Assembly: GCF_029227855.1 (NCBI RefSeq)
Contig: NZ_CP074356.1
From: Escherichia coli
GTDB taxonomy: Bacteria; Pseudomonadota; Gammaproteobacteria; Enterobacterales; Enterobacteriaceae
Direction: 5' to 3' (one strand)
DNA length: 64,000 bases
The notes below the pieces were generated by a model. It searched no databases and was not told where the DNA came from. It saw only the letters and a program-made list of their open reading frames with translations. A program made the position numbers and the translations under genes. Below are positions 1,963 through 62,472 of the stretch, piece after piece (the stretch's first letter is position 1; each line of letters starts with the position of its first letter).

Positions 1963-2685
1963 TTAAACGATGCGGCAGGCGTCGGCTTCCCAGCGGTAAC
2001 CGACGCCGTAAACGGCACGGATAAAGGACTGTTCGGCGTCGAGAGATTCCAGCTTGCGACGCAGGTTTTTAATGTGGCTGTCGATGGTGCGGTCGGTTAC
2101 TACGCGGTAGTCGTCATAAAGATGATTGAGCAATTGCTCGCGGGAGAACACTTTTCCTGGTTCATGAGAGAGCGTTTTCAGCAGACGAAATTCCGCAGGC
2201 GTCAGGTCAAGCATTTTTCCGCGCCATGAAGCCTGAAAACGACCTTCGTCGATAATCAACGGGCTTTCAGCATCCTGTTGCTGCAACTCACGCTGCGGTT
2301 TGCAACGGCGCAAAATGGTTTTGACGCGCGCTACCACTTCCCGTGGGCTGTACGGCTTGCAGATATAATCATCTGCGCCAATTTCCAGCCCCAGCAGGCG
2401 GTCGATCTCTTCGATTTTTGCTGTCACCATCACGATCGGAATGTCAGAAAAACGACGAATTTCCCGACACAGCGTCAGGCCATCGGTGCCAGGGAGCATC
2501 AGATCCAGCAGGATCAGATCCGGTGGTGTCTGGCGCACATACGGCAGTACCTGATCGCCGTGGCTAATCAACGTTGGCGCATAGCTCGCAGCACGCAGAT
2601 AATCAATGAGTAACTGCCCCAGCTTCGGTTCATCTTCCACGATCAAAATACGCGGTGTGTTTTCGTCGATTGGTAACTCGGTCAT
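1963..2685 (-). CDS. baeR: OmpR-family response regulator BaeR
   Basis: 240 aa; receiver domain ([13 protein letters not shown]...[14 protein letters not shown]) plus winged-helix output domain; 4-nt overlap with baeS upstream. Confidence 0.95.
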
Positions 2686-4085
2686 ACTTCTCTCTGTAAA
2701 TCCCGTTCCAGCGGTAACTCTACTGTAATGCTTACCCCGCCAAAAGGCGAATGGGCAGCAATAATGCGGCCATTATGGGCTTCAACAATGTTCAGGCAAA
2801 TCGCCAGCCCCAGCCCGGAACCGCCGCTGGCGCGGTTGCGGGAGCCTTCGGCGCGATAAAAACGTTCAAACAATTTTTGTAGCTGATCGTCACTGACGCC
2901 CGGCGCGCTGTCGGCAAAGGTCAGTCGCACCGTTTTGTCGTGCTGCTCGGCAGAGATTTTCAGGCTGCCGCCGCTGTCAGTGTAGCGCAGGCTGTTTTCA
3001 AGTAAGTTATTGAATAACTGCATTAAACGGTCGCGATCGCCAAATACGGTAATACTGTCTGGCAGGGAGAATTGCAGTTTCAGGCCACGGCTGGCAAATC
3101 GTTCGCGAAATGCGCCGCCCGCTACTTCCAGCAGTGGGATCAAATCTACCGGTGCTTTTTGATAGGCGAGAGCGCCTTCATCAGACATCGACAACTGATG
3201 GAGATCGTCAACCAGTTTGGTCAGTGTACCGACCTCCGCCTGTAAAGACGCCACCGTCTCCGGCGTGAATTTACGCACGCCATCCTGAATGGCTTCCAGT
3301 TCACCGCGCAGCACCGCTAATGGCGTACGCAGTTCGTGAGAAATATCGGCCATAAAATCGCGGCGCATTTGCTGGTTTTTCTCCAGCGTGCTGGCGAGCT
3401 GGTTGAAGTCCTGCGCCAGTTTGCCCAGTTCATCTTCACTGGTGGGCGTCACGCGGGTTGTGAAATCGCCCGCCGCCAGTTTGTGCGTGCCGTCCACCAG
3501 CCGTTTGACCGGGGCCAACAGACCACGCGCCAGCAGAAAGGTGGCGAGCGCCGCGAGTAACGTTGCCAGGGCGACAATCAGCCAGCTGGTTTGCCGCTGT
3601 TGTTTATCGAAATTGATATCAGTATTGCGGGTCAGTCGCTCAACAGGGGAGGCAATCACCGCACCCACTTCCGCACCGTTGACCAGAATGGGTCGCCGTG
3701 TACCGTCAGGTGGAATCGGCGCTCGCGGACCAACCAGCACCTTGTTGTTTTGATCAACCACCCAGAACTGAGTACGCCAGCCGTGCGGCGGCATACCCGG
3801 GCCGGGTTTATCTTCCGAATTATCGTGTTCAAATGAACGCAGGATCTGAAAGACAAAGCGATCGTTGTTGCGCAGGAAGCGCCAGTTACCATGCTGCGCA
3901 TACTGCTCGCCAAGCGCATCACTTAACAGCTGTAATCGCTGTTCATTGCCGTGTTTGATGTAATCAATAAAGCCACGCTCAAAACTGATACGCACCGCCC
4001 AGTGCATACTGATCAGCAAGACAATGCAGGTGGCGAAAATCGCCAGAAACAGTTTGCCGGTAATACCAGGTCGCCAGAACTTCAT
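2682..4085 (-). CDS. baeS: Sensor histidine kinase BaeS
   Basis: 467 aa; N-terminal TM segments, H-box ([24 protein letters not shown]) and HATPase G-boxes (GGSGLGLAI). Confidence 0.95.
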
Positions 4086-5497
4086 TGCGCGCTCCTTTTT
4101 CGCCGCGAAATAGCTACATTTTGATGCGTATCGTTCGGCACTCTGGCAAAGATGAACGCCGGAAGGGCGATGATAAACGCCATGCTAAACCAGGTGTACA
4201 TAAAGACGGTTTGTGTGGTGCCGCTGTCGACGCTGACATGCTGCGAACCAAAAAGCCCCAGCAACAGCCCGGCGATGGTGACGCCGATACTCATCGACAA
4301 TTGCATAATCATCGACAGCAGGCTGTTTCCGCTGCTCGCCAGATTGTCCGGGAGATCTTTCAGCGTCAGGGTGTTCATGGAGGAGAAACGGGTCGAGTTG
4401 ACCATCCCTTGTAAAAACAGGACGAACGGCAAAACGTAGTACCAGCCCAGCAGAGCAGTGGTCATAAACAACAGGGTGACCAGCGACAGACCCAGCGTGG
4501 TCGCCACCAGTACCCGACGGTAGCCAAAGCGATTCACCACCTGTACCATAATTCGCTTCATTCCCATGCTGCCAAGCACCATCGGGATCATCATCAGTCC
4601 GGCATGAAACGGTGAGAAGCCAAGGCCAATTTGCAGGAAAACCGGTGTCATAAAGGGCAACATGCCACTGCCAATACGTCCGGCAAAGCTCCCCGCCAGG
4701 CCCAGCGAAAAGGTACGAGTGCGGAACAGTTTCAGACTGAACAGGGCGCGGTTGTTATTTCTGGCGTGCAGCAGATAAAGCACCAGTGCCACCACGCCAA
4801 CTGCGACCAGGCCAGCAATCGCCAGCGGCGATAAACCTGTACCTTTACTGCCGTCCAGTGCCAGGGTTAATACCGCCATGCCAACCGCCAGCAATAAAAA
4901 GCCGGAAAGATCAAAGCGCCGCGTCTGCATGGTGTAGTTCGGCATTAACATCAGTGTGGCGATCGCGCCAATAATCCCCACCGGAATGTTGATCAAAAAG
5001 ATCCAGTGCCACGACGCGTATTCCACCAGCAGACCGCCGAGCGCCGGACCGAGCAGCGGACCGACCTGACCGGGTAACGTGACAAAGGTCATCGCCGCCA
5101 TATATTGCTCGCGCGGTACGATTTTCATCACCGTCAACCTGCCGACCGGCACCATCATCGCGCCGCCAACGCCCTGTAACGCGCGTGCCAGCAACAGTTC
5201 GTTCAGCGTGCCGGAAAGCGCGCAAAACAGTGAACCGAGAGTAAACAGCACGATGGCGGTAAAGAAAATATTGCGCACGCCGACTTTGTCCGCCAGCCAG
5301 CCGCTGGCGGGCAGCATCACCGCCACGGTCAGTACATAAGAGACAATGACCATGTGCATATGCAACGGACTTTCCCCGAGGCTTTGCGCCATTGAGGGAA
5401 GCGCGGTGTTAACGATGGTGGTGTCCAGCGACTGCATAAAGAAGCCGAAAGCCACAATCCACAATTGCCAGCGGGTGCTGTCGGGAAGATCTGTCAT
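4082..5497 (-). CDS. mdtD: MFS transporter MdtD
   Basis: 471 aa polytopic membrane protein with MFS-type repeats; sits in the mdtABCD-baeSR operon with a 4-nt overlap with baeS. Confidence 0.95.
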
Positions 5498-8400
5498 TTA
5501 CTCGGTTACCGTTTGTTTAGGTTTACGCGAAAAACGCAGCCGCAGACGGTCGAAAAAGAGATACACCACCGGCGTGGTATACAGCGTCAGAAGCTGGCTC
5601 ATTACCAGACCGCCGACAATGGTGATCCCCAGGGGTTGGCGCAGCTCCGAGCCGTCACCGCCCGACAATACCAGCGGCAGCGCGCCAAACAGCGCCGCCA
5701 GGGTAGTCATCATAATCGGGCGAAAACGCAGCAGACAGGCCTGGAAAATAGCTTCCTGCGGCGTCAGGTTACCGTGCCGTTGGGCTTCAAGCGCAAAATC
5801 GACCATCATAATGGCGTTTTTCTTCACGATGCCGATTAATAGCATGATCCCTATCAGGGCGATTAGGCTGAACGGGGCATTGAACAGCTCCAGCGCCAAC
5901 AGCGCTCCAACGCCCGCCGAGGGCAGGGTGGAGAGAATCGTCAGCGGATGTACGTAACTCTCGTAAAGGATACCCAGCACGATATACACCGTGGCGATGG
6001 CGGCGATAATCAGGATCACCTGCGAGTTCATCGTCTCCTGGAACACCTGCGCCGTGCCGGCAAAACTACCGCGCACCGTCGAAGGCACACCAAGCTGGGT
6101 CATTGCGCGATCGATCGCCGCACTGGCGTCCGAGAGCGATTTCCCGGTCGGCAGGTTAAACGAAATGGTCGAGGCCGCCGATAATCCCTGATGATTCACC
6201 GACAGCGGAGCATTCGCCGGTTGCCATTTAGCGAAATACGACAGCGGGATCGCTTTTCCTTCGTTATTGATAACGAACATTTTTTCCAGCGCGCTGATGT
6301 CCTGGGTATAGCGCGGATCCACTTCCATCACCACTTTGTACTGGTTCATCGGCTGGTAAATGGTCGAGATTTGCCGCTGACCGAAGGCGTTATTTAACAG
6401 GCTGTTGGCGGCCTGCACGTCGATTCCCAGCCGCGCCATGGTGTCGCGGTCGTAAACCAGATTCATCTCCGCGCCGTTATCCTGCTGATCGGAGTTCACG
6501 TCCGCCAGTTCCGGCAACGTTGCCAGTTTTTTGCGGATTTTCGGCTCCCATTCGCGCAGTGCCGCCAGGTCGTCGGATAACAACGTGTACTGGTAACTGG
6601 CGTTCGACTGACGTCCGCCAACGCGAATATCCTGTACCGCCATCAGGAACAGATTCGCCCCCGGTTCTTTCGCCAGTTTTACGCGCAGACGGTCGATAAT
6701 TTGCTGCGCCGTTTCGCTGCGTTCGTCGCGTGGCTTGAGGGTGATAAACATCATCCCACTGTTCACCCGCGAACCGCCGGTAAAGCCGGTGACATTATCC
6801 ACCGCCGGATCGTCACGGATAATTTTCATAAAATCCTGCAACTTACCGCGCATCGCCTGAAACGAAATACTCTGATCCGCCTGTATCCCGCCCATCAACA
6901 CGCCGGTGTCCTGCTCCGGGAAGAAGGTTTTCGGGATCGAGATATATAGCCAGATATTCAGCGCAATGGTGCCAAGCAGCACCACGCCCACCAGACGGGT
7001 ATGATTGAGCACCCATTTCAGCGACTTGCCATAGCCTTGTTGCAGGGCTACCAACATGCGACCAAAACCACGCAGTCGCTTTTGCTCGCGCGGCTTGCTG
7101 GCTTTTAGCATCCAGCCGCACATCATCGGCGTTAGCGTCAGGGAAACCAGCAACGAAATACCAATGGCGACAGAAAGCGTCACGGCAAACTCGCGTAACA
7201 GTCTGCCCGGCAATCCGCCCATCAACAGCAGCGGCAGAAACACCGCCACCAGTGACAGACTCATCGACAGCACCGTAAAACCGACTTCGCGAGTACCTTG
7301 CAGTGCGGCCTGTAGTGGTTTTATCCCCGCTTCCAGGTGACGGGCAATGTTTTCCAGCACCACGATGGCGTCATCCACCACGAAACCAGTAGCAATAGTG
7401 AGCGCCATTAACGACAGGTTATTGAGACTGAATCCGCACAGGTACATCGCCGCAAACGTACCAATCAGCGAAACCGGCACCGCAACGGCGGGAATAATAG
7501 TGGCGCGACCCGAGCGCAGGAATAAAAACACCACCAGAATCACCAGCGCCACCGAGATAATCAGCGTTTGCTCGACTTCTTCCAGCGAGGCGCGAATGGT
7601 GGGGGAGCGATCCTGGGCAATTTGCAGATCAATCGCCGCCGGAATGGTCTCCTGCAACTCCGGTAATTTTGCCCGGATGCTGTCAACCGTCTGGATTATA
7701 TTGGCTTCCGGCAGCTTGCGGATCATCAGCAAAATAGCCGGTTTGGCGTTGGTCATCCCGGCGTTACGTACATCTTGTACAGAGTCGGTCACCGTCGCCA
7801 CATCGCCCAGACGAACCGCGCCGCCGTTGTTGTAATGAATAATCAACGGCTGATATTCAGCGGCGGTTTTCAGTTCATCGTTAGTCTGGATCTGCCAGCG
7901 GTGAGTATCATCTTCCAGCGCCCCCTGCGGTTTACGCACGTTGGCATTGCTGATGGCGGTGCGCACATCGTCCAGCGACACGCCCTGATTAAACAGCGCC
8001 TGCGGATTCAGCCCGACGCGTACGGCGGGCAGCGAGCTGCCGCCAACATCGACATCACCGACACCGTCGATTTGCGAAATCGTCGGAGCCAACTGCGTCG
8101 AGGCGAAATCGTACAGTTCACCCTGCGAATAAGTATCGGACGTCAGCGTCAGGATCATTATTGGCGCATCCGACGGGTTCGCTTTGCGATAGGTCGGACG
8201 GCTGGGCATCCCGCTAGGCAGCAAACTTTGTGCGGCGTTGATCGCCGCTTGCACATCGCGCGCTGCGCCGTTGATATCGCGGTCAAAATCAAACTGCAAA
8301 ATAATGCGCGTGCTGCCGAGCGAACTGCTGGAGGTCATTTCACTGACCCCGGCAATGCGCCCAAGCGAACGTTCCAGCGGCGTGGCAACGGAAGACGCCA

Positions 8401-8575
8401 TTGTTTCTGGTGACGCACCGGGCAGCGAGGCGCTGACCATAATCACCGGAAAATCGACCTGCGGCAGTGGGGCGACCGGCAGCATACGGAAGCCCAGTAT
8501 GCCGCACAGGGTAATGGCGACCGACAGTAAAATCGTCGCCACCGGGCGGTAAATGAAGAGGGCAAAAAACTTCAC
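5498..8575 (-). CDS. mdtC: RND multidrug efflux pump subunit MdtC
   Basis: 1025 aa; AcrB/RND-family sequence ([29 protein letters not shown]...). Confidence 0.95.
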
Positions 8576-11500
8576 TTACGCCTCCTCTTCATGGCGAGCA
8601 AAGCGACTTTTGGTCCACAATGCCAGGCGGTCGAACAGCAGATAAATCACCGGCGTGGTGAACAGCGTCAGCACCTGGCTGACAATCAGACCGCCGACCA
8701 TGCCGATACCTAACGGACGACGCAGTTCCGCGCCGACCCCGGTACTCAACATCAGCGGCAGCGCGCCAAGCAGAGCCGCCAGAGTGGTCATCAGGATCGG
8801 ACGAAAACGTAACAGACAAGCCTGGTAGATTGCCTCGCGCGGCGACATGCCTTGCTCGCGCTCAGCAGCCAGCGCGAAGTCGATCATCATGATGGCGTTC
8901 TTCTTCACGATACCGATCAGCAAAATAATGCCGATAATCGCAATCACATCCAGCTCGCTACCGGCAATCAGTAACGCCAGCAGTGCGCCGACCCCTGCGG
9001 TGGGTAGCGTCGAGAGAATGGTGATCGGGTGAATAAAGCTCTCGTACAGAATGCCGAGCACGATATACATCGCCACCACCGCCGCGACAATCAGCCAGAC
9101 AGTGCTGCCCAACGCCGACTGGAAGGCGAGGGTGCTGCCCTGGAACTGCGTGGTGATATCCACCGGCAGATTCAGCGTCTTTTCGGTGTCCATAATCGCC
9201 TGCACCGCATCGCCCAGCGAATAGTTATCCGGCACGTTAAAGGAGATGGTCGTTACCGGGAACTGATCCAGATGGTTGATGGAAAGCGGCGCAAAACGCT
9301 GCTCAATTTTGGCAATTGAGCTTAACGGCACCACTCCACCGTCGCTGCTGGTCAGGCGAATGGTATCCAGCGCCGCGAGGCCTGGGGTATTTTCGGTGTT
9401 GTGTTCCAGCACCACGCGATACTGGTTAGCCTGAGTATAAATAGTGGAAATCAGCCGCTGACCAAACGCGTTGTACAGGGCGTTATCGACATCCGCCATG
9501 CTGATCCCCAGACGGCTGGCGCTGTCGCGATCAACATTGACATACGCCACCAGCCCTTTGTCCTGCCAGTCGCTGGAGACATCAGATAGCTGTGGCAGCT
9601 GCTGGAGTTTTTCCATCAACTGTGGCACCCAGGTACTGAGCGCATCCAGTGACGTGGCCTGCAAGGTAAACTGGTACTGGGTGCGGCTGACCTGAGTATC
9701 GATGGTCAGGTCCTGCGTTGGTTGCAGGAAGAGATCGACGCCCGGCACTTTATCCACCGCCGTTTGCAGACGGGCGATGACTTTTTGCACCCGATCATCA
9801 CGTTCATCCAGCGGTTTGAGGTTGATCTGCAAACGCGCACTGTTCAGCGACGGGTTAGTGCCATCAACGCCAACAAATGAGGTCAGACTTTGCACTGCCG
9901 GATCCTGCAAAATCACGTCCGCGACCTGGCGTTGCCGCTGGGCCATATTGGCAAAGGAGCTGGATTGCGGTGCCTGCAAAGTGCCCTGAATAATGCCGTT
10001 ATCCTGTACCGGGAAGAAACCTTTCGGAATGAACACCCACAACAGCACGCTAAGCAGCAGCGTGCTGAGTGCCACGCTTAAGGTCAGCCACGGATGATTC
10101 AGCACTTTCGCCAGTCCACGACCATAGGCGGCGATTATCCTGTCGAACATTTTCTCCGAGGCTCGGGAGAAGCGATTCTGTTTACGCAGCGACTCCTGGC
10201 TGAGCATCCGCGCGCACATCATCGGCGTCAGAGTCAGCGACACCACGGCTGAGATCAAAATTGCTACCGCCAGGGTAATGGCAAACTCGCGGAACAGTCG
10301 CCCGACGATATCGCCCATAAACAGTAGCGGGATCAGCACTGCAATCAGCGAGAAGGTCAGCGAGATAATGGTAAAACCGATTTCACCTGCGCCTTTGAGC
10401 GCCGCCGCCAGCGGTTTTTCGCCTTTTTCGATATAGCGCGAAATGTTCTCGATCACCACGATGGCGTCATCGACCACGAATCCGGTGGCGATAGTTAACG
10501 CCATCAGCGTCAGGTTATTGATCGAAAAATCGAGAAACACCATGACTGCGAAGGTGCCGATTAACGACAGCGGCACTGCGACGCCAGGAATAATGGTCGC
10601 CGGAATATTGCGCAAAAACAGGTAGATAATCATGACTACCAGCGCGATAGCCATCATCAGTTCAAACTGGGTATCGTCGACCGATGCGCGGATGTTGGTG
10701 GTGCGGTCAGAAAGCACCGTCACTTTTACCGATTTCGGCAAACTCTCGGTGAGTTGTGGCAGCATCTGCCGGATGCTGTCGGCGGTGGAGATAATGTTAG
10801 CACCGGGCTGGCGCTGAACATTCATCACAATGGCCTGTTCTTTGTTCGCCCACGCGCCGAGCCAGCTGTTTTCTGCTCCTTGCTCTACGGTTGCGACATC
10901 GCCCAGACGAATCGGCGCGCCGTTCTGGTAGGCGATGATCAGCTGGCGATACTCTTCGGCGGATTGCATCTGGTCGTTCGCGGAAAGTGTGACCGCACGG
11001 GAAGGGCCGTCGAGGCTACCTTTTGCCGAGTTAACGTTAGCGCCGGTAATAGCGGTGCGCACGGTTTCGCTGGTCAGGCCGAGGGCGGCAATCGCCTGGG
11101 CGTTAAGTTTGACGCGAACAGCCGGACGCTGGCCGCCGGAAAGCGTCACCAGGCCGACGCCGGAAATCTGCGAGATTTTTTGCGCGACGCGGGTTTCCAC
11201 CATATCTTCCACTTGCGTCATCGGCATGGCGGTTGAGGTGACAGCGAGCGTCATGATTGGCGGATCTGCCGGGTTCACTTTGCTGTAAACCGGCGGGTTA
11301 GGCAGATCGCTCGGTAGCAGGTTGGTCGCAGCGTTAATCGCGGCCTGCACTTCCTGCTCGGCGACATCCAGCGGTAATGTTAGCTGGAACTGCAAAGTGA
11401 TAACTGACGCACCGCCGGAACTTTGCGACGACATCTGTTTCAGGCCGGACATCTGCCCGAACTGGCGTTCGAGCGGCGCGGTAACGGCAGAGGTCATGAC

Positions 11501-11698
11501 ATCCGGGCTGGCACCTGGGTAGAGGGTGACCACCTGAATGGTTGGATAGTCCACTTCCGGCAGCGCCGAAACGGGCAGGGCACGATAACCGATAATCCCG
11601 GCGAGTAAGATCGCCACCATCAGCAGCGTGGTGGCGACAGGACGCATAATAAACAGGCGCGATGGGCCGCCTGTGCTGCTCGGGGGTAACACCTGCAT
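8576..11698 (-). CDS. mdtB: RND multidrug efflux pump subunit MdtB
   Basis: 1040 aa; RND family, paralogous to mdtC; start overlaps the mdtA stop. Confidence 0.95.
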
Positions 11699-12945
11699 CA
11701 GGAGCGTGCTCCTTTTTTCGCGTATTCGCGGCTGGTGGCTTTCTCTTCCGGAGTGGTGGCGCTCTGGGCTTCCACTACTTCCACTTTCGCCCCTTCGGTC
11801 AGGCGATCAATGCCGTCTGTCACTACGCGGTCGCCCGCAGAAATACCTGCGCGGATCACCACTTTCTGACTGTCCTGAATGCCCGGCGTCACCAGATGTT
11901 TGCTGACCTTGTTTTCGCTATTCAGCACCCAGACAAAATGGCCTTCATTGCCCATTTGCAGGGCGGCGGTGGGGATCACCACGGCGTTTTGTTCGGTGTC
12001 GACTAACATACGCGCGTTAACAAACTGATTGGGAAACAGTGCATCATCCTGATTATTAAAGCGTGCTTTCACTTTAATCGTACCGGTAGTGGCATCGATT
12101 TGGTTATCGAGGCTTAACAGCGTGCCTTCACTTAATTTCTTCGAGTTGGTGCGATCCCAGGCTTCAACAACCAGCGGTTTTCCGGCTTTTTGCGCCTGTA
12201 CTACGGTAGCGATATCGCTTTCCGGCAGGGTAAAGACTAAATCGATAGGGTGCGTCTGGGTGATCACCACAATCCCGGTGGTATCACCACTGGAGATTTG
12301 GTTACCAACATCAACCTGCTTGAGACCAACGCGACCATCGACTGGTGCGGTGATGCGGCTCCAGTCGAGTTGCAGCTGCGCGCTGGCGACGCTTGCTTCA
12401 TCAGCCTTAATGGTGCCTTCGGTTTCACTGACCAGCGCCTGTTGGGCATCCAGCTCCTGACGAGATACGAGATTGGTTTTTACCAGTTGTTGATAACGCG
12501 CCAGGTCACGGCGGGCGTTGGCAAGCGTGGCTTTATCTTTTGCCAGTTGGCCCTGGGCTTGTGCTAATGCAACTTTGAACTGGCTTGGGTCAATTTCTGC
12601 CAGTAAATCGCCTGCTTTGACCTGCTGGCCTTCCTGGAAATGTAACGCTATCAGTTGGCCGTCCACGCGGCTGCGCACCGTAACGGTATTAGCGGCGGTA
12701 ATGGTGCCAAGCCCGGTGAGGTAACGCGGAACTGCCTGTTCTACGGCGGTCGCCGCCTGAACCGGGGCTAATGGGCCGGAACGCATACCACGGCGACCAC
12801 CCGCTGGCGATTGCTGCGCTTGTTTCGTCGCCCCTGGGGCTGCACTCCGGGAGTCATTGCGGCCTTGCCAGAACCAGAATGCGGCGATGGCGGCGATAAC
12901 CACCACGATTACGATTACCCAACGGGATTTATAACTGCCTTTCAT
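11698..12945 (-). CDS. mdtA: RND efflux membrane fusion (periplasmic adaptor) protein MdtA
   Basis: 415 aa from ATG at 12945 ([27 protein letters not shown]...), matching remembered MdtA; the ORF-track 5' extension to 13092 is rejected. Confidence 0.9.
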
Positions 12946-12998
12946 CGTTAAGAGTTTCTCTTCCTGAAACGTTTCGCGGAATGATACTAGTGTAGCCA

Positions 12999-13016
12999 GC
13001 CAATAAGGGAGAAAAA
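12999..13016 (-). promoter_or_regulatory. Candidate BaeR-binding box in the mdtA promoter
   Basis: Minus strand reads TTTTTCTCCCTTATTGGC, close to the reported BaeR consensus TTTTTCTCCATDATTGGC, about 55 bp upstream of the mdtA start. Confidence 0.5.
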
Positions 13017-13175
13017 TGGAGGAATTATGAAACACTATCGGGAATCGTCTGAATGGCGGGCACATTTGCGAGCACGCATCCAGTAATAACACATGAAACT
13101 ATTTTATCTACGCGTTAGCGATAGACTACGTGCATGGCGAAAGGAGGTAAGCCGATGATTTCAGCGGGACGCTGA

Positions 13176-13320
13176 AACGGGAAAGCCCCTCCCGAGGAAG
13201 GGGCCATAAATAAATAAGGAAAGGGTCATGATGAAGCTACTCATCATCGTGGTGCTCTTAGTCATTAGCTGGCCAGCTTACTAAGACTACCAGGGCGGGG
13301 GAAACCCCGCTCTACCCTCA
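13176..13320 (-). ncRNA. Sib-type antisense sRNA, copy 1 (antitoxin of ibs)
   Basis: Minus-strand promoter TTGACA (13355..13350), 17-bp spacer, TACTTT (13332..13327); transcript fully overlaps ibs copy 1; GC-rich hairpin (13186..13205) followed by a U-rich stretch on the minus strand. Ends are approximate. Confidence 0.5.
13228..13284 (+). CDS. Type I toxin Ibs, 18 aa hydrophobic peptide (MMKLLIIVVLLVISWPAY)
   Basis: ATGATG start followed by a hydrophobic 18-codon ORF, typical of Ibs toxins, preceded by AAGGAAAGGG. Confidence 0.75.
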   Translation: MMKLLIIVVLLVISWPAY

Positions 13321-13506
13321 CTCCTGAAAGTATGCCTTCACGATAAGATTGTCAATCTGCAGGCTTTGCAGTCTGCGATCCTGCCAGCAAATATTCTTTG
13401 CGAGACGTTACGCAATAATCACACTGGAAACTATTTTATCCGCAAGTCAGCGATAGACTGCATACAGGGCGAAAGGAGGTAAGCCGACGATTTCAGCGGG
13501 ACGCTG

Positions 13507-13648
13507 AAACGGGAAAGCCCCTCCCGAGGAAGGGGCCTTAAATAAGGAAAGGGTCATGATGAAGATACTCATCATCGTGGTGCTCTTAGTGATTAGCTAC
13601 CCAGCATACTAAGACTACCAGGGCGGGGGAAACCCCGCTCTACCCTCA
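13507..13648 (-). ncRNA. Sib-type antisense sRNA, copy 2
   Basis: Same architecture as copy 1: minus-strand TTGACA (13683..13678), 17-bp spacer, TAATTT (13660..13655); hairpin plus U-rich 3' end near 13507. Ends are approximate. Confidence 0.5.
13556..13612 (+). CDS. Type I toxin Ibs, 18 aa (MMKILIIVVLLVISYPAY)
   Basis: Paralogue of copy 1 at the same position in repeat unit 2. Confidence 0.75.
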   Translation: MMKILIIVVLLVISYPAY

Positions 13649-13835
13649 CTCCTGAAATTATGCCTTCACGATAAGATTGTCAATCTGCAGGCTTTGCAGT
13701 CTGCGATCCTGCCAGCAAATATTCTTTGCGAGTCGTTACGCAATAATCACAGAGGAAACTATTTTGTTCACGCGTTAGCGATAGACTGCATTCAGGGCGA
13801 AAGGAGGTAAGCCGACGATTTCAGCGGGACGCTGA

Positions 13836-13983
13836 AACGGGAAACCCTCTCCCGGAGAAGAGGGCTTTTAATAAGGAAAGGGTTATGATGAAGCACGTCA
13901 TCATACTGGTGATACTCTTAGTGATTAGCTTCCAGGCTTACTAAGAACACCAGGGGGAGGTGGAAACCTCTCCCTAACCCTCA
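13836..13983 (-). ncRNA. Sib-type antisense sRNA, copy 3
   Basis: Minus-strand TTGACA (14018..14013), 17-bp spacer, TAATTT (13995..13990); diverged hairpin CCCTCTCCCGGAGAAGAGGG. Ends are approximate. Confidence 0.45.
13885..13944 (+). CDS. ibsA: Type I toxin Ibs, 19 aa (MMKHVIILVILLVISFQAY), IbsA-like
   Basis: The 19-aa peptide matches the remembered IbsA sequence; it is the most diverged of the three copies. Confidence 0.7.
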   Translation: MMKHVIILVILLVISFQAY

Positions 13984-14164
13984 CTCCTGAAATTATGTCA
14001 CTCCGCCCTTAGTGTCAATCGACGGCTCTCCGTTCTTGCGAGGCGAATAGCAAAATTTTCTGCGCCGCCGGGCCTAATTCTGAAAGTTTCTTCGTTTGCT
14101 CTTATTTCATTATTGCAGTCGGTATGATACCGGACCTCAATAATTCTCTAAGAAAGGATTTCTT

Positions 14165-29044: not shown

Positions 29045-29083
29045 CAGTGTATTGGTAGCTAAAAAGCCAGGGGCGGTAGCGTG
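29045..29083 (+). promoter_or_regulatory. JUMPstart element with ops (GGCGGTAGCGTG, RfaH recruitment) in the colanic acid operon leader
   Basis: CAGTGTATTGGTAGCTAAAAAGCCAGGGGCGGTAGCGTG matches the 39-bp JUMPstart consensus; ops core at 29072..29083, about 180 bp upstream of wza. Confidence 0.7.
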
Positions 29084-43458: not shown

Positions 43459-43558
43459 CCGTTGAATAATCAACCGGATTAATTCTCCGGTAAATAACGA
43501 AAAAACAAAATTGGCCGCTTCGGTCAGGGCCAACTATTGCCTGAAAAAGGGTAACGAT

Positions 43559-53157: not shown

Positions 53158-53196
53158 CAGTACTCTGGTAGCTGTAAAGCCAGGGGCGGTAGCGTG
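53158..53196 (+). promoter_or_regulatory. JUMPstart element with ops (GGCGGTAGCGTG) upstream of the O-antigen cluster
   Basis: CAGTACTCTGGTAGCTGTAAAGCCAGGGGCGGTAGCGTG, 39 bp; ops core at 53185..53196, about 100 bp upstream of the first O-antigen gene. Confidence 0.75.
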
Positions 53197-61764: not shown

Positions 61765-62472
61765 CAGAAAACCCCCAGCTAGGCTGGGGGTTCCGGAAAG
61801 CTTTCAGCTTTGAGCCAGTTATTAAAACCCCTTTTGATTTGTTAAAACACTTTGCGGTCTGGCAACTGCAAGTGTCAAACAAGAAATCAAAAGGGGGTCC
61901 CAATGGGGAACGAAAAGAGCTTAGCGCACACCCGATGGAACTGTAAATATCACATAGTTTTTGCGCCAAAATACCGAAGACAGGTGTTCTACAGAGAGAA
62001 GCGTAGAGCAATAGGCAGTATTTTGAGAAAGCTGTGTGAGTGGAAAAGCGTACGGATTCTGGAAGCTGAATGCTGTGCAGATCATATCCATATGCTTGTG
62101 GAGATCCCGCCCAAAATGAGCGTATCCGGCTTTATGGGATATCTGAAAGGGAAAAGCAGTCTGATGCTTTACGAGCAGTTTGGTGATTTGAAATTCAAAT
62201 ACAGGAACAGGGAGTTCTGGTGCAGAGGGTACTACGTCGATACGGTGGGTAAGAACACGGCGAAGATACAGGATTACATAAAGCACCAGCTTGAAGAGGA
62301 TAAAATGGGAGAGCAGTTATCGATTCCCTATCCGGGCAGCCCGTTTACGGGCCGTAAGTAACGAAGTTGGATGCAAATGTCAGATCGTGTGCGCCTGTTA
62401 GGGCGCGGCTGGTAAGAGAGCCTTATAGGCGCATTTGAAAAACCTCCGGCTATGCCGGAGGATATTTATTTT
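61765..62472 (+). mobile_element. IS200-family insertion sequence (IS200/IS605 family); boundaries approximate
   Basis: About 0.7 kb element between gnd and ugd carrying a tnpA ORF; left-end hairpin CCCCCAGCTAGGCTGGGGG and right-end hairpin CCTCCGGCTATGCCGGAGG. gnd and ugd are directly adjacent in K-12. Confidence 0.7.
61903..62361 (+). CDS. tnpA: IS200 transposase TnpA (HUH Y1 transposase)
   Basis: 152 aa from ATG at 61903; MGNEKSLAHTRWNCKYHIVFAPKYRRQVFY...HIHMLVEIPPK (HuH motif) is characteristic of IS200 TnpA. Confidence 0.85.
   Translation: MGNEKSLAHTRWNCKYHIVFAPKYRRQVFYREKRRAIGSILRKLCEWKSVRILEAECCADHIHMLVEIPPKMSVSGFMGYLKGKSSLMLYEQFGDLKFKYRNREFWCRGYYVDTVGKNTAKIQDYIKHQLEEDKMGEQLSIPYPGSPFTGRK

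Follow-up and report, generated by a model that had tools for sequence, protein, structure and literature searches.

What does a near-consensus BaeR box, lodged between the efflux gene mdtA and an array of ibs/sib repeats, say about the promoter in which it lies, and does the neighbouring array take part in the control of that promoter? We addressed both questions in a 64 kb stretch of Escherichia coli DNA (the whole of the sequence analysed, hereafter the window). Our main reading, to which we assign a probability of about 0.9, is that this is the BaeR-activated promoter of the E. coli mdtABCD-baeSR operon, identical to that of K-12, and that the ibs/sib repeats are merely adjacent to it.

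The BaeR box and the mdtABCD-baeSR operon

The first-pass annotation had reported a near-consensus BaeR sequence on the minus strand, in the mdtA promoter and beside the ibs/sib array. The sequence is present as quoted, and the setting is confirmed by operon genes that pass their NCBIfam models and by Sib RNAs that pass the Rfam model.

12999..13016, minus strand: BaeR box TTTTTCTCCCTTATTGGC (reverse complement of the plus-strand GCCAATAAGGGAGAAAAA), matching the Nishino-type consensus at 17/18 positions and lying 54-71 bp ahead of the mdtA ATG at 12945 (-71..-54)

At up to three mismatches, TTTTTCTCCCTTATTGGC is the sole match to the consensus TTTTTCTCCATDATTGGC in the 64 kb window (shuffle mean 0.15), and at up to one mismatch it again stands alone, with a match in none of 100 shuffles. 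The annotation had placed the single deviation at the degenerate position, which is wrong: the mismatch falls on consensus position 10 (A to C), and the T at position 12 (D) is an allowed base.

The genes downstream of the box form the complete efflux and two-component operon, in which the call of mdtA also has the RefSeq annotation of an identical strain behind it:

11698..12945, minus strand: mdtA, first gene of mdtABCD-baeSR (NCBIfam NF008589, 721 bits against a cut-off of 391)
8576-11698, minus strand: mdtB (above the NCBIfam curated cut-off)
5498-8575, minus strand: mdtC (above the NCBIfam curated cut-off)
4082-5497, minus strand: mdtD (above the NCBIfam curated cut-off)
2682-4085, minus strand: baeS (NCBIfam, 932 bits against a cut-off of 603)
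1963-2685, minus strand: baeR (NCBIfam, 450 bits against a cut-off of 380)

Hence, the regulator is encoded within the very operon that it activates. The BaeR protein aligns over its full length with PDB 4B09, which has the same length (E 3.5e-159); this entry is named as protein only, and the PDB matches contain no BaeR-DNA structure. An open reading frame ending at 13092 (in the program-made list) is an in-frame upstream extension of mdtA. On the far side of the promoter, beyond three Ibs reading frames, lie yegL and pphC.

The predicted core promoter of mdtA

Between the box and the start codon we recognised a putative core promoter with the following elements:

12981..12989, minus strand: putative -10 region TAGTATCAT, with the overlapping candidates TAGTAT and TATCAT
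12974, minus strand: predicted mdtA transcription start, placed from the -10 position (7 nt past TATCAT and ~29 nt before the ATG)

At the spacing required from TAGTATCAT we could discern no -35 hexamer, as is expected and typical for an activator-dependent promoter whose -35 region is covered by an OmpR/PhoB-type regulator. The start-site table of Kim et al. 2012 holds no genuine mdtA start, the signal that it assigns to mdtA falling inside sibA.

A CpxR box (GTAAA-N5-GTAAA) was sought as a separate candidate in 12946-13140 and rejected, the best site having at least three mismatches in 10.

Identity with the K-12 site and conservation within E. coli

From -91 to the mdtA ATG the window is identical to K-12 MG1655, and a few SNPs appear beyond -91. 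The K-12 counterpart of the box (2153945-2153962) could hence be set against the BaeR ChIP-exo peaks given for K-12 in the supplement of PMC7657598, namely peak_5 (2153931-2153967) and peak_6 (2153972-2153998). Transferred to the window, peak_5 covers 13030-12994, with the box inside it, and peak_6 covers 12989-12963, which is the -10 and predicted start region. The box thus has the same sequence as a K-12 site that BaeR occupies in vivo, and its proposed identity is upheld. According to the expression values given with the same K-12 data, deletion of baeR in 5% ethanol changes mdtA expression by a log2 fold change of -4.0 (a 16-fold drop), and in unstressed cells it leaves mdtA expression unchanged (PMC7657598).

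The consensus TTTTTCTCCATDATTGGC is credited to Nishino et al. 2005 in the form quoted by PMC3799227 and PMC3915751. Since the mdtA promoter carries the K-12 sequence, its site is one that the consensus describes and not a newly found near-match; indeed, in K-12 this stretch is among the promoters from which the published consensus took shape. The BaeR site in the mdtA promoter is already characterised and represents textbook knowledge rather than a discovery, and control of mdtABCD-baeSR by BaeR through this site is long established, with a ChIP-exo confirmation in 2020. The original footprint, gel-shift and primer-extension papers are reportedly those of Baranova & Nikaido 2002, Nishino 2005 and Yamamoto 2008.

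Within the species the locus is close to universal: the 801 bp surrounding the site match E. coli JNEC-KY178 at 100% identity and are present in 5419 of the 5426 complete E. coli genomes, and a 61-nt core (13035-12975) is kept at ≥99% identity in 5279 of 5417 complete E. coli records. The ibsB-mdtA spacer already serves as a strain-typing marker (PMC11267920), and the division between its constrained part (13035-12975, near-invariant) and the freely varying rest aids the reading of such markers.

In one record bearing the label E. coli DH5alpha (NZ_CP026085.1) the core differs by two SNPs, at the equivalents of window positions 13013 (in the box, TTTTT to TTTGT) and 12981 (in the -10, TATCAT to TATCAC). 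The SNPs that it has farther upstream agree with this window and not with MG1655, so the DH5alpha label looks doubtful.

Conservation across genera and the extent of the operator

Upstream regions of mdtA were collected through MdtA homologues (E. albertii, two Citrobacter and one Klebsiella-type locus), and a metagenome scan with a pattern confined to the -10/5'UTR recovered 56 loci. Dereplication gave 31 distinct variants, which were assigned by best MdtA match to Escherichia, a Citrobacter type, a Klebsiella type and two further enterobacterial types. We stress that much of this set was retrieved by the -10/5'UTR pattern, and conservation downstream of 12989 is in part a product of that construction; nevertheless, TAGTATCAT is kept in the separately retrieved Citrobacter and Klebsiella loci. 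Upstream of the -10, the most constant element proved to be displaced from the textbook box:

13012..13032, minus strand: block TTTCATAATTCCTCCATTTTT, near-invariant across genera and overlapping the first 5 nt of the box
13006..13011, minus strand: third repeat core CTCCCT, located within the box, 10 bp past CTCCAT

Across at least four lineages, the 21-nt TTTCATAATTCCTCCATTTTT deviates in only 2 of the 31 variants (by one and by two bases). It contains the hexamers TTTCAT (13032-13027) and CTCCAT (13021-13016), 11 bp apart, which we regard as putative BaeR half-sites. Together with CTCCCT they form head-to-tail repeats at 11 and 10 bp, that is, all within a spacing of 10-11 bp. The third core is found in Escherichia and most Citrobacter-type variants, and its place is taken in the Klebsiella-type and other lineages by GC-rich sequence unrelated to it. 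More generally, the site is constant only in the block (with the first 5 nt of the box), and the 13 nt that follow (the 3' two-thirds of the box) differ by lineage:

Escherichia: CTCCCTTATTGGC
Citrobacter type: CTCCCTTGATGGC or CTCCCGTTATGGA
C. freundii locus (L127): CGCCCTTGATCGC
Klebsiella type: AAGCGGCGTTCGC
further enterobacterial group: GCGGGGCGTTCCC
a single locus (L157): TTGGCCCGCAGGG

The stretch from the block to the -10 is free of indels in all 31 variants, and the spacing of the block to the -10 is therefore fixed.

The variation of the 13 nt outside Escherichia and Citrobacter suggests, at the level of sequence, that the operator may be a tandem direct repeat of the CTCCAT type. 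The mildly new point of this analysis is that the conserved element at mdtA looks like a tandem-CTCCAT-like one, shifted upstream of the textbook box. We tentatively put forward, as a possibility to which we would give rather less than an even chance, that the textbook box is only the promoter-proximal, lineage-specific third of the operator, and that the ancestral determinant is TTTCATAATTC-CTCCAT (13032-13016). If this were true, the upstream pair by itself would serve the Klebsiella-type lineages, and BaeR sites outside E. coli would be mis-predicted from the published consensus. For practical purposes, a motif search based on the 18-mer from E. coli will overlook or misplace the mdtA BaeR sites of Klebsiella-type and other enterobacteria, because there the upstream CTCCAT-containing block alone is conserved.

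The upstream block could, however, be conserved for a reason other than BaeR. The 18-nt box would then be the complete BaeR site, and the block would be kept for a second sigma-70 promoter or for another regulator (e.g., CpxR), an explanation that we consider unlikely but deserving of a full hearing. The spy promoter speaks for it: there the entire 18-mer (including ATTGGC) is conserved across three genera (E. albertii, Salmonella and Citrobacter), which makes the textbook box a real unit at that gene, within the scope of a Spy homologue search whose matches were nearly all from Salmonella and included no Klebsiella spy promoter. A scan of genome contigs with TTTTTCTCCNTNATTGGC returned at least 120 matches, almost all of them chance occurrences in unrelated phyla, and among the matches listed a single one was relevant, namely the E. 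albertii spy promoter. At mdtA, by contrast with this box-alone reading, the block agrees with the footprinted tandem site of the regulator DzrR (CTCCATCATATCTCCATATT) at 14 of 20 positions.

As for a second, BaeR-independent promoter, the promoter scan yields one candidate with 9/12 matches (-35 TTCAGA at 13053-13048, an 18-nt spacer and -10 CATAAT at 13029-13024), and its elements are well kept, CATAAT occurring in 30 of the 31 variants and a -35-like T(T/A/C)C(A/G)GA being retained at 18-19 nt. Nonetheless, a match of this quality is at chance level (one found, 1.5 expected), with a start at ~13017 the DNA occupied by BaeR would form part of the transcribed leader, a poor fit to activation, and ChIP-exo peak_6 lies over TAGTATCAT rather than over the CATAAT promoter. 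CpxR is reported in the literature to influence mdtA, but a ChIP-exo study does not have mdtA among the direct CpxR targets. Peak_5 spans both the 18-nt box and the upstream block, and is compatible with either reading of the operator.

Two further elements of the alignment deserve description. A second conserved patch (13035-13053, minus strand), made up of CAGAC, ~9 nt and ACAG, lies upstream of the BaeR region and forms palindromes that differ between lineages (CCAGA-N4-TCTGG in the Klebsiella type, CGGAT-GA-ATCCG in some Citrobacter); it overlaps the -35-like TTCAGA of the weak sigma-70-like match TTCAGA-18-CATAAT. The other is found at the predicted start:

12966..12975, minus strand: perfect 10-bp palindrome GAAACGTTTC, at the predicted start/5'UTR

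This palindrome is conserved in Escherichia, Citrobacter and Klebsiella-type promoters (with a 1-nt deletion inside it in E. albertii) and resembles a LacI-family operator core. As a Cra/FruR operator it was rejected: it mismatches gcTGAAtCGaTTCAgc at 6 of 16 positions, 56 sites in the window do better (≤5 mismatches), and the Cra ChIP-exo paper makes no mention of mdtA.

The ibs/sib array and its relation to the promoter

The repeats upstream of the promoter are a separate type I toxin-antitoxin array that simply adjoins it, and this is the normal E. coli layout. Three units were delineated (ibs reading frames after the RefSeq annotation of an identical strain and the repeat family D3):

13180..13355, minus strand: Sib unit 1, sibB-like (Rfam RF00113, 140.2 bits at 13355-13213)
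13541-13683, minus strand: Sib unit 2 (Rfam SIB_RNA, 13683-13541)
13870-14018, minus strand: Sib unit 3, sibA-like (Rfam SIB_RNA, 14018-13870)
13184..13205, minus strand: terminator hairpin of Sib unit 1 predicted by folding, GGCCCCUUC-CUCG-GGAGGGGCU, then UUU
13123..13134, plus strand: ibs unit 1 promoter, with -10 TAGACT at 13123-13128 and start at 13134, diverging from mdtA
13228..13284, plus strand: ibs toxin reading frame of unit 1, 18 aa
13556-13612 and 13885-13944, plus strand: ibs reading frames of units 2 and 3

The three SIB_RNA matches score 140-149 bits (gathering score 56), with short Ibs reading frames on the opposite strand. In unit 1, with ends taken from the K-12 sibB annotation, the -35 TTGACA lies at 13355-13350 and the RNA runs from ~13319 to 13180, co-directionally with mdtA. 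A second hairpin (13180-13152) follows the unit, the stretch 13225-13150 folds at -28.9 kcal/mol (z = -3.4), and the annotated 3' end of K-12 SibB maps just past the terminator hairpin. The ibs start corresponds to the K-12 ibsB start at 2151851 (NC_000913.2) as entered in supplement file 2 of Kim et al. 2012, which maps to 13134.

K-12 has two units here (sibA and sibB), and the present strain has three between yegL and mdtA; units 1 and 2 share 95% identity over 300 nt, an indication of a recent duplication of the ibsB-type unit. The leader of ibs unit 1 (13141-13176, plus strand) contains a strong Shine-Dalgarno sequence AAGGAGG and an ATG at 13155 opening a 6-codon reading frame, MISAGR. 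This small upstream frame was rejected as a functional candidate, the ATG being ACG in unit 2 and in K-12; AAGGAGG is conserved.

The annotation had further put the first ibs/sib unit at less than 100 bp from the box, which holds for the edge of the repeated DNA (13065, 48 bp) but fails for the transcribed parts, the ibs start (13134) being 118 bp away and the Sib RNA 3' end (~13180) 164 bp. From this proximity it had derived a possible transcriptional interference between the repeats and the efflux operon. The layout lends this no support, as ibs points away from mdtA and Sib ends ~200 bp before the predicted mdtA start. In its several forms (Sib read-through, promoter occlusion or supercoiling between divergent promoters), we hold a mutual effect of the ibs/sib unit and mdtA transcription to be quite improbable. 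Sib unit 1 is co-directional with mdtA and its terminator has a tail of only three U and goes uncalled by a simple terminator scan, the ibs and predicted mdtA starts stand back to back ~160 bp apart, and the Sib copy number varies by strain (three here, two in K-12), all of which would be in keeping with such an effect. Against it, no transcription units converge or overlap, Sib is followed by two stable hairpins at the point where the annotated K-12 SibB ends, and mdtA in K-12 depends strongly on BaeR under stress and is indifferent to baeR deletion without it. The core promoter, moreover, is shared by lineages with 0, 1, 2 or 3 Sib units upstream: it is the same in Klebsiella-type and other loci, which have none, and in nearly all Citrobacter-type loci, which have a single co-oriented one. 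In one E. coli strain the promoter is even parted from the array by an IS66-family insertion at -91/-92.

We found no link between sibB and the regulation of mdtA in the literature. Such an effect could now come only from terminator read-through or supercoiling coupling, which lack positive support; still more speculatively, Sib read-through could provide the pump and baeSR with a basal transcription that is independent of BaeR and tuned by Sib copy number. The notion that the box is a T/C-rich 18-mer arisen by chance and devoid of a regulatory role can be set aside as refuted, for apart from the low complexity of its 5' half (TTTTTCTCCC) nothing favours it, and it is contradicted by the shuffles at up to one mismatch, by the exact identity with a K-12 site occupied in vivo (ChIP-exo) and by the near-invariance in 5279/5417 E. 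coli records.

Several loci add detail to the surroundings of the array. The insertion mentioned above belongs to E. coli WWCOL-315 (NZ_CP155523.1) and is an ISCro1-like element (tnpA, tnpB, transposase) situated 91 bp upstream of the mdtA ATG, at the equivalent of 13036/13037; it lies just outside the conserved block, and block and box are intact. In Citrobacter (L126 and L127, and the metagenome loci L141, L153 and L170) a single co-oriented Sib, followed by an HSP70-family yegD-like gene, precedes mdtA, and yegI-pphC-yegL, the E. coli neighbours of the array, were not seen between mdtA and that gene. One Citrobacter-type locus (L179) has no Sib within 936 bp upstream of mdtA.

A whole-window Rfam scan also registered, on the plus strand and far from the BaeR site, two JUMPstart elements, an algC RNA motif and an STnc490 Hfq-binding sRNA (29045-29083, 53158-53196, 43505-43554 and 61770-61893). 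These distant matches fit with polysaccharide gene clusters farther down the window.

Proposed mode of activation

We reason from an established footing, namely the sequence identity with K-12, the in vivo occupancy and the BaeR-dependent induction in K-12, and the intact operon. Under envelope stress (indole, ethanol, metals) the kinase BaeS would become active and BaeR, a member of the OmpR/PhoB family, would be phosphorylated. BaeR-P would then bind 13032-12999, upstream of and overlapping the missing -35 of the TAGTATCAT promoter (12989-12981), and, once bound, would recruit RNA polymerase. Since the operon ends with baeSR, the site would also close a positive feedback loop.

Within this scheme, BaeR may read the head-to-tail repeats TTTCAT, CTCCAT (11 bp on) and CTCCCT (10 bp on), as suggested by the comparison across genera; by analogy with AdeR and DzrR, its winged helix would make contact with them. 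The 18-nt box would in that case cover just the last repeat and ATTGGC.

Comparison with known systems

The closest known system is the BaeR site of K-12 mdtA (yegM), which has the same sequence, the same distance to mdtA and the same operon (including baeSR). The promoter is no different from that of K-12, and the difference between the two loci lies upstream, with three ibs/sib units here and two in K-12. In locus and orientation the array itself conforms to the Sib/Ibs system of K-12 (RF00113; sibA/sibB between yegL and mdtA), and its units each pair a Sib RNA of ~140 nt with an antisense Ibs reading frame of 18-19 aa.

Among the other BaeR sites of K-12, the boxes of spy (TTTTTCTCCATAATTGGC) and acrD (TTTTTCTCCACGATTGGC), read directly from the K-12 sequence, share with mdtA the 18-nt frame TTTTTCTCC...ATTGGC. 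They differ from it at the core, as the C at position 10 gives mdtA a CTCCCT where spy and acrD have CTCCAT/CTCCAC, and at mdtA the better CTCCAT core lies 10 bp upstream of CTCCCT. The position also differs, the mdtA box adjoining the -10 and the spy box lying much farther from its gene (139 bp from the ATG).

Beyond BaeR, the arrangement at mdtA recalls two regulators that, like BaeR, belong to the OmpR/PhoB family. AdeR has been crystallised in complex with AAGTGTGGAG-N-AAGTGTGGAG, read on the opposite strand as two copies of CTCCACACTT (PMC5766154), and the DzrR operator is CTCCATC-N4-CTCCAT, with a footprint (CGGTTCTCCATCATATCTCCATATT) that holds two CTCCAT cores (PMC10052836). BaeR and AdeR are no more than distant paralogues (BaeR scores 153 bits on the AdeR model, cut-off 340), and the first mdtA repeat is degenerate (TTTCAT), unlike the repeats of AdeR and DzrR. 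Nevertheless, the AdeR and DzrR sites resemble that of mdtA in that CTCCA(T/C) cores follow one another head to tail at 10-11 bp in front of an RND pump operon.
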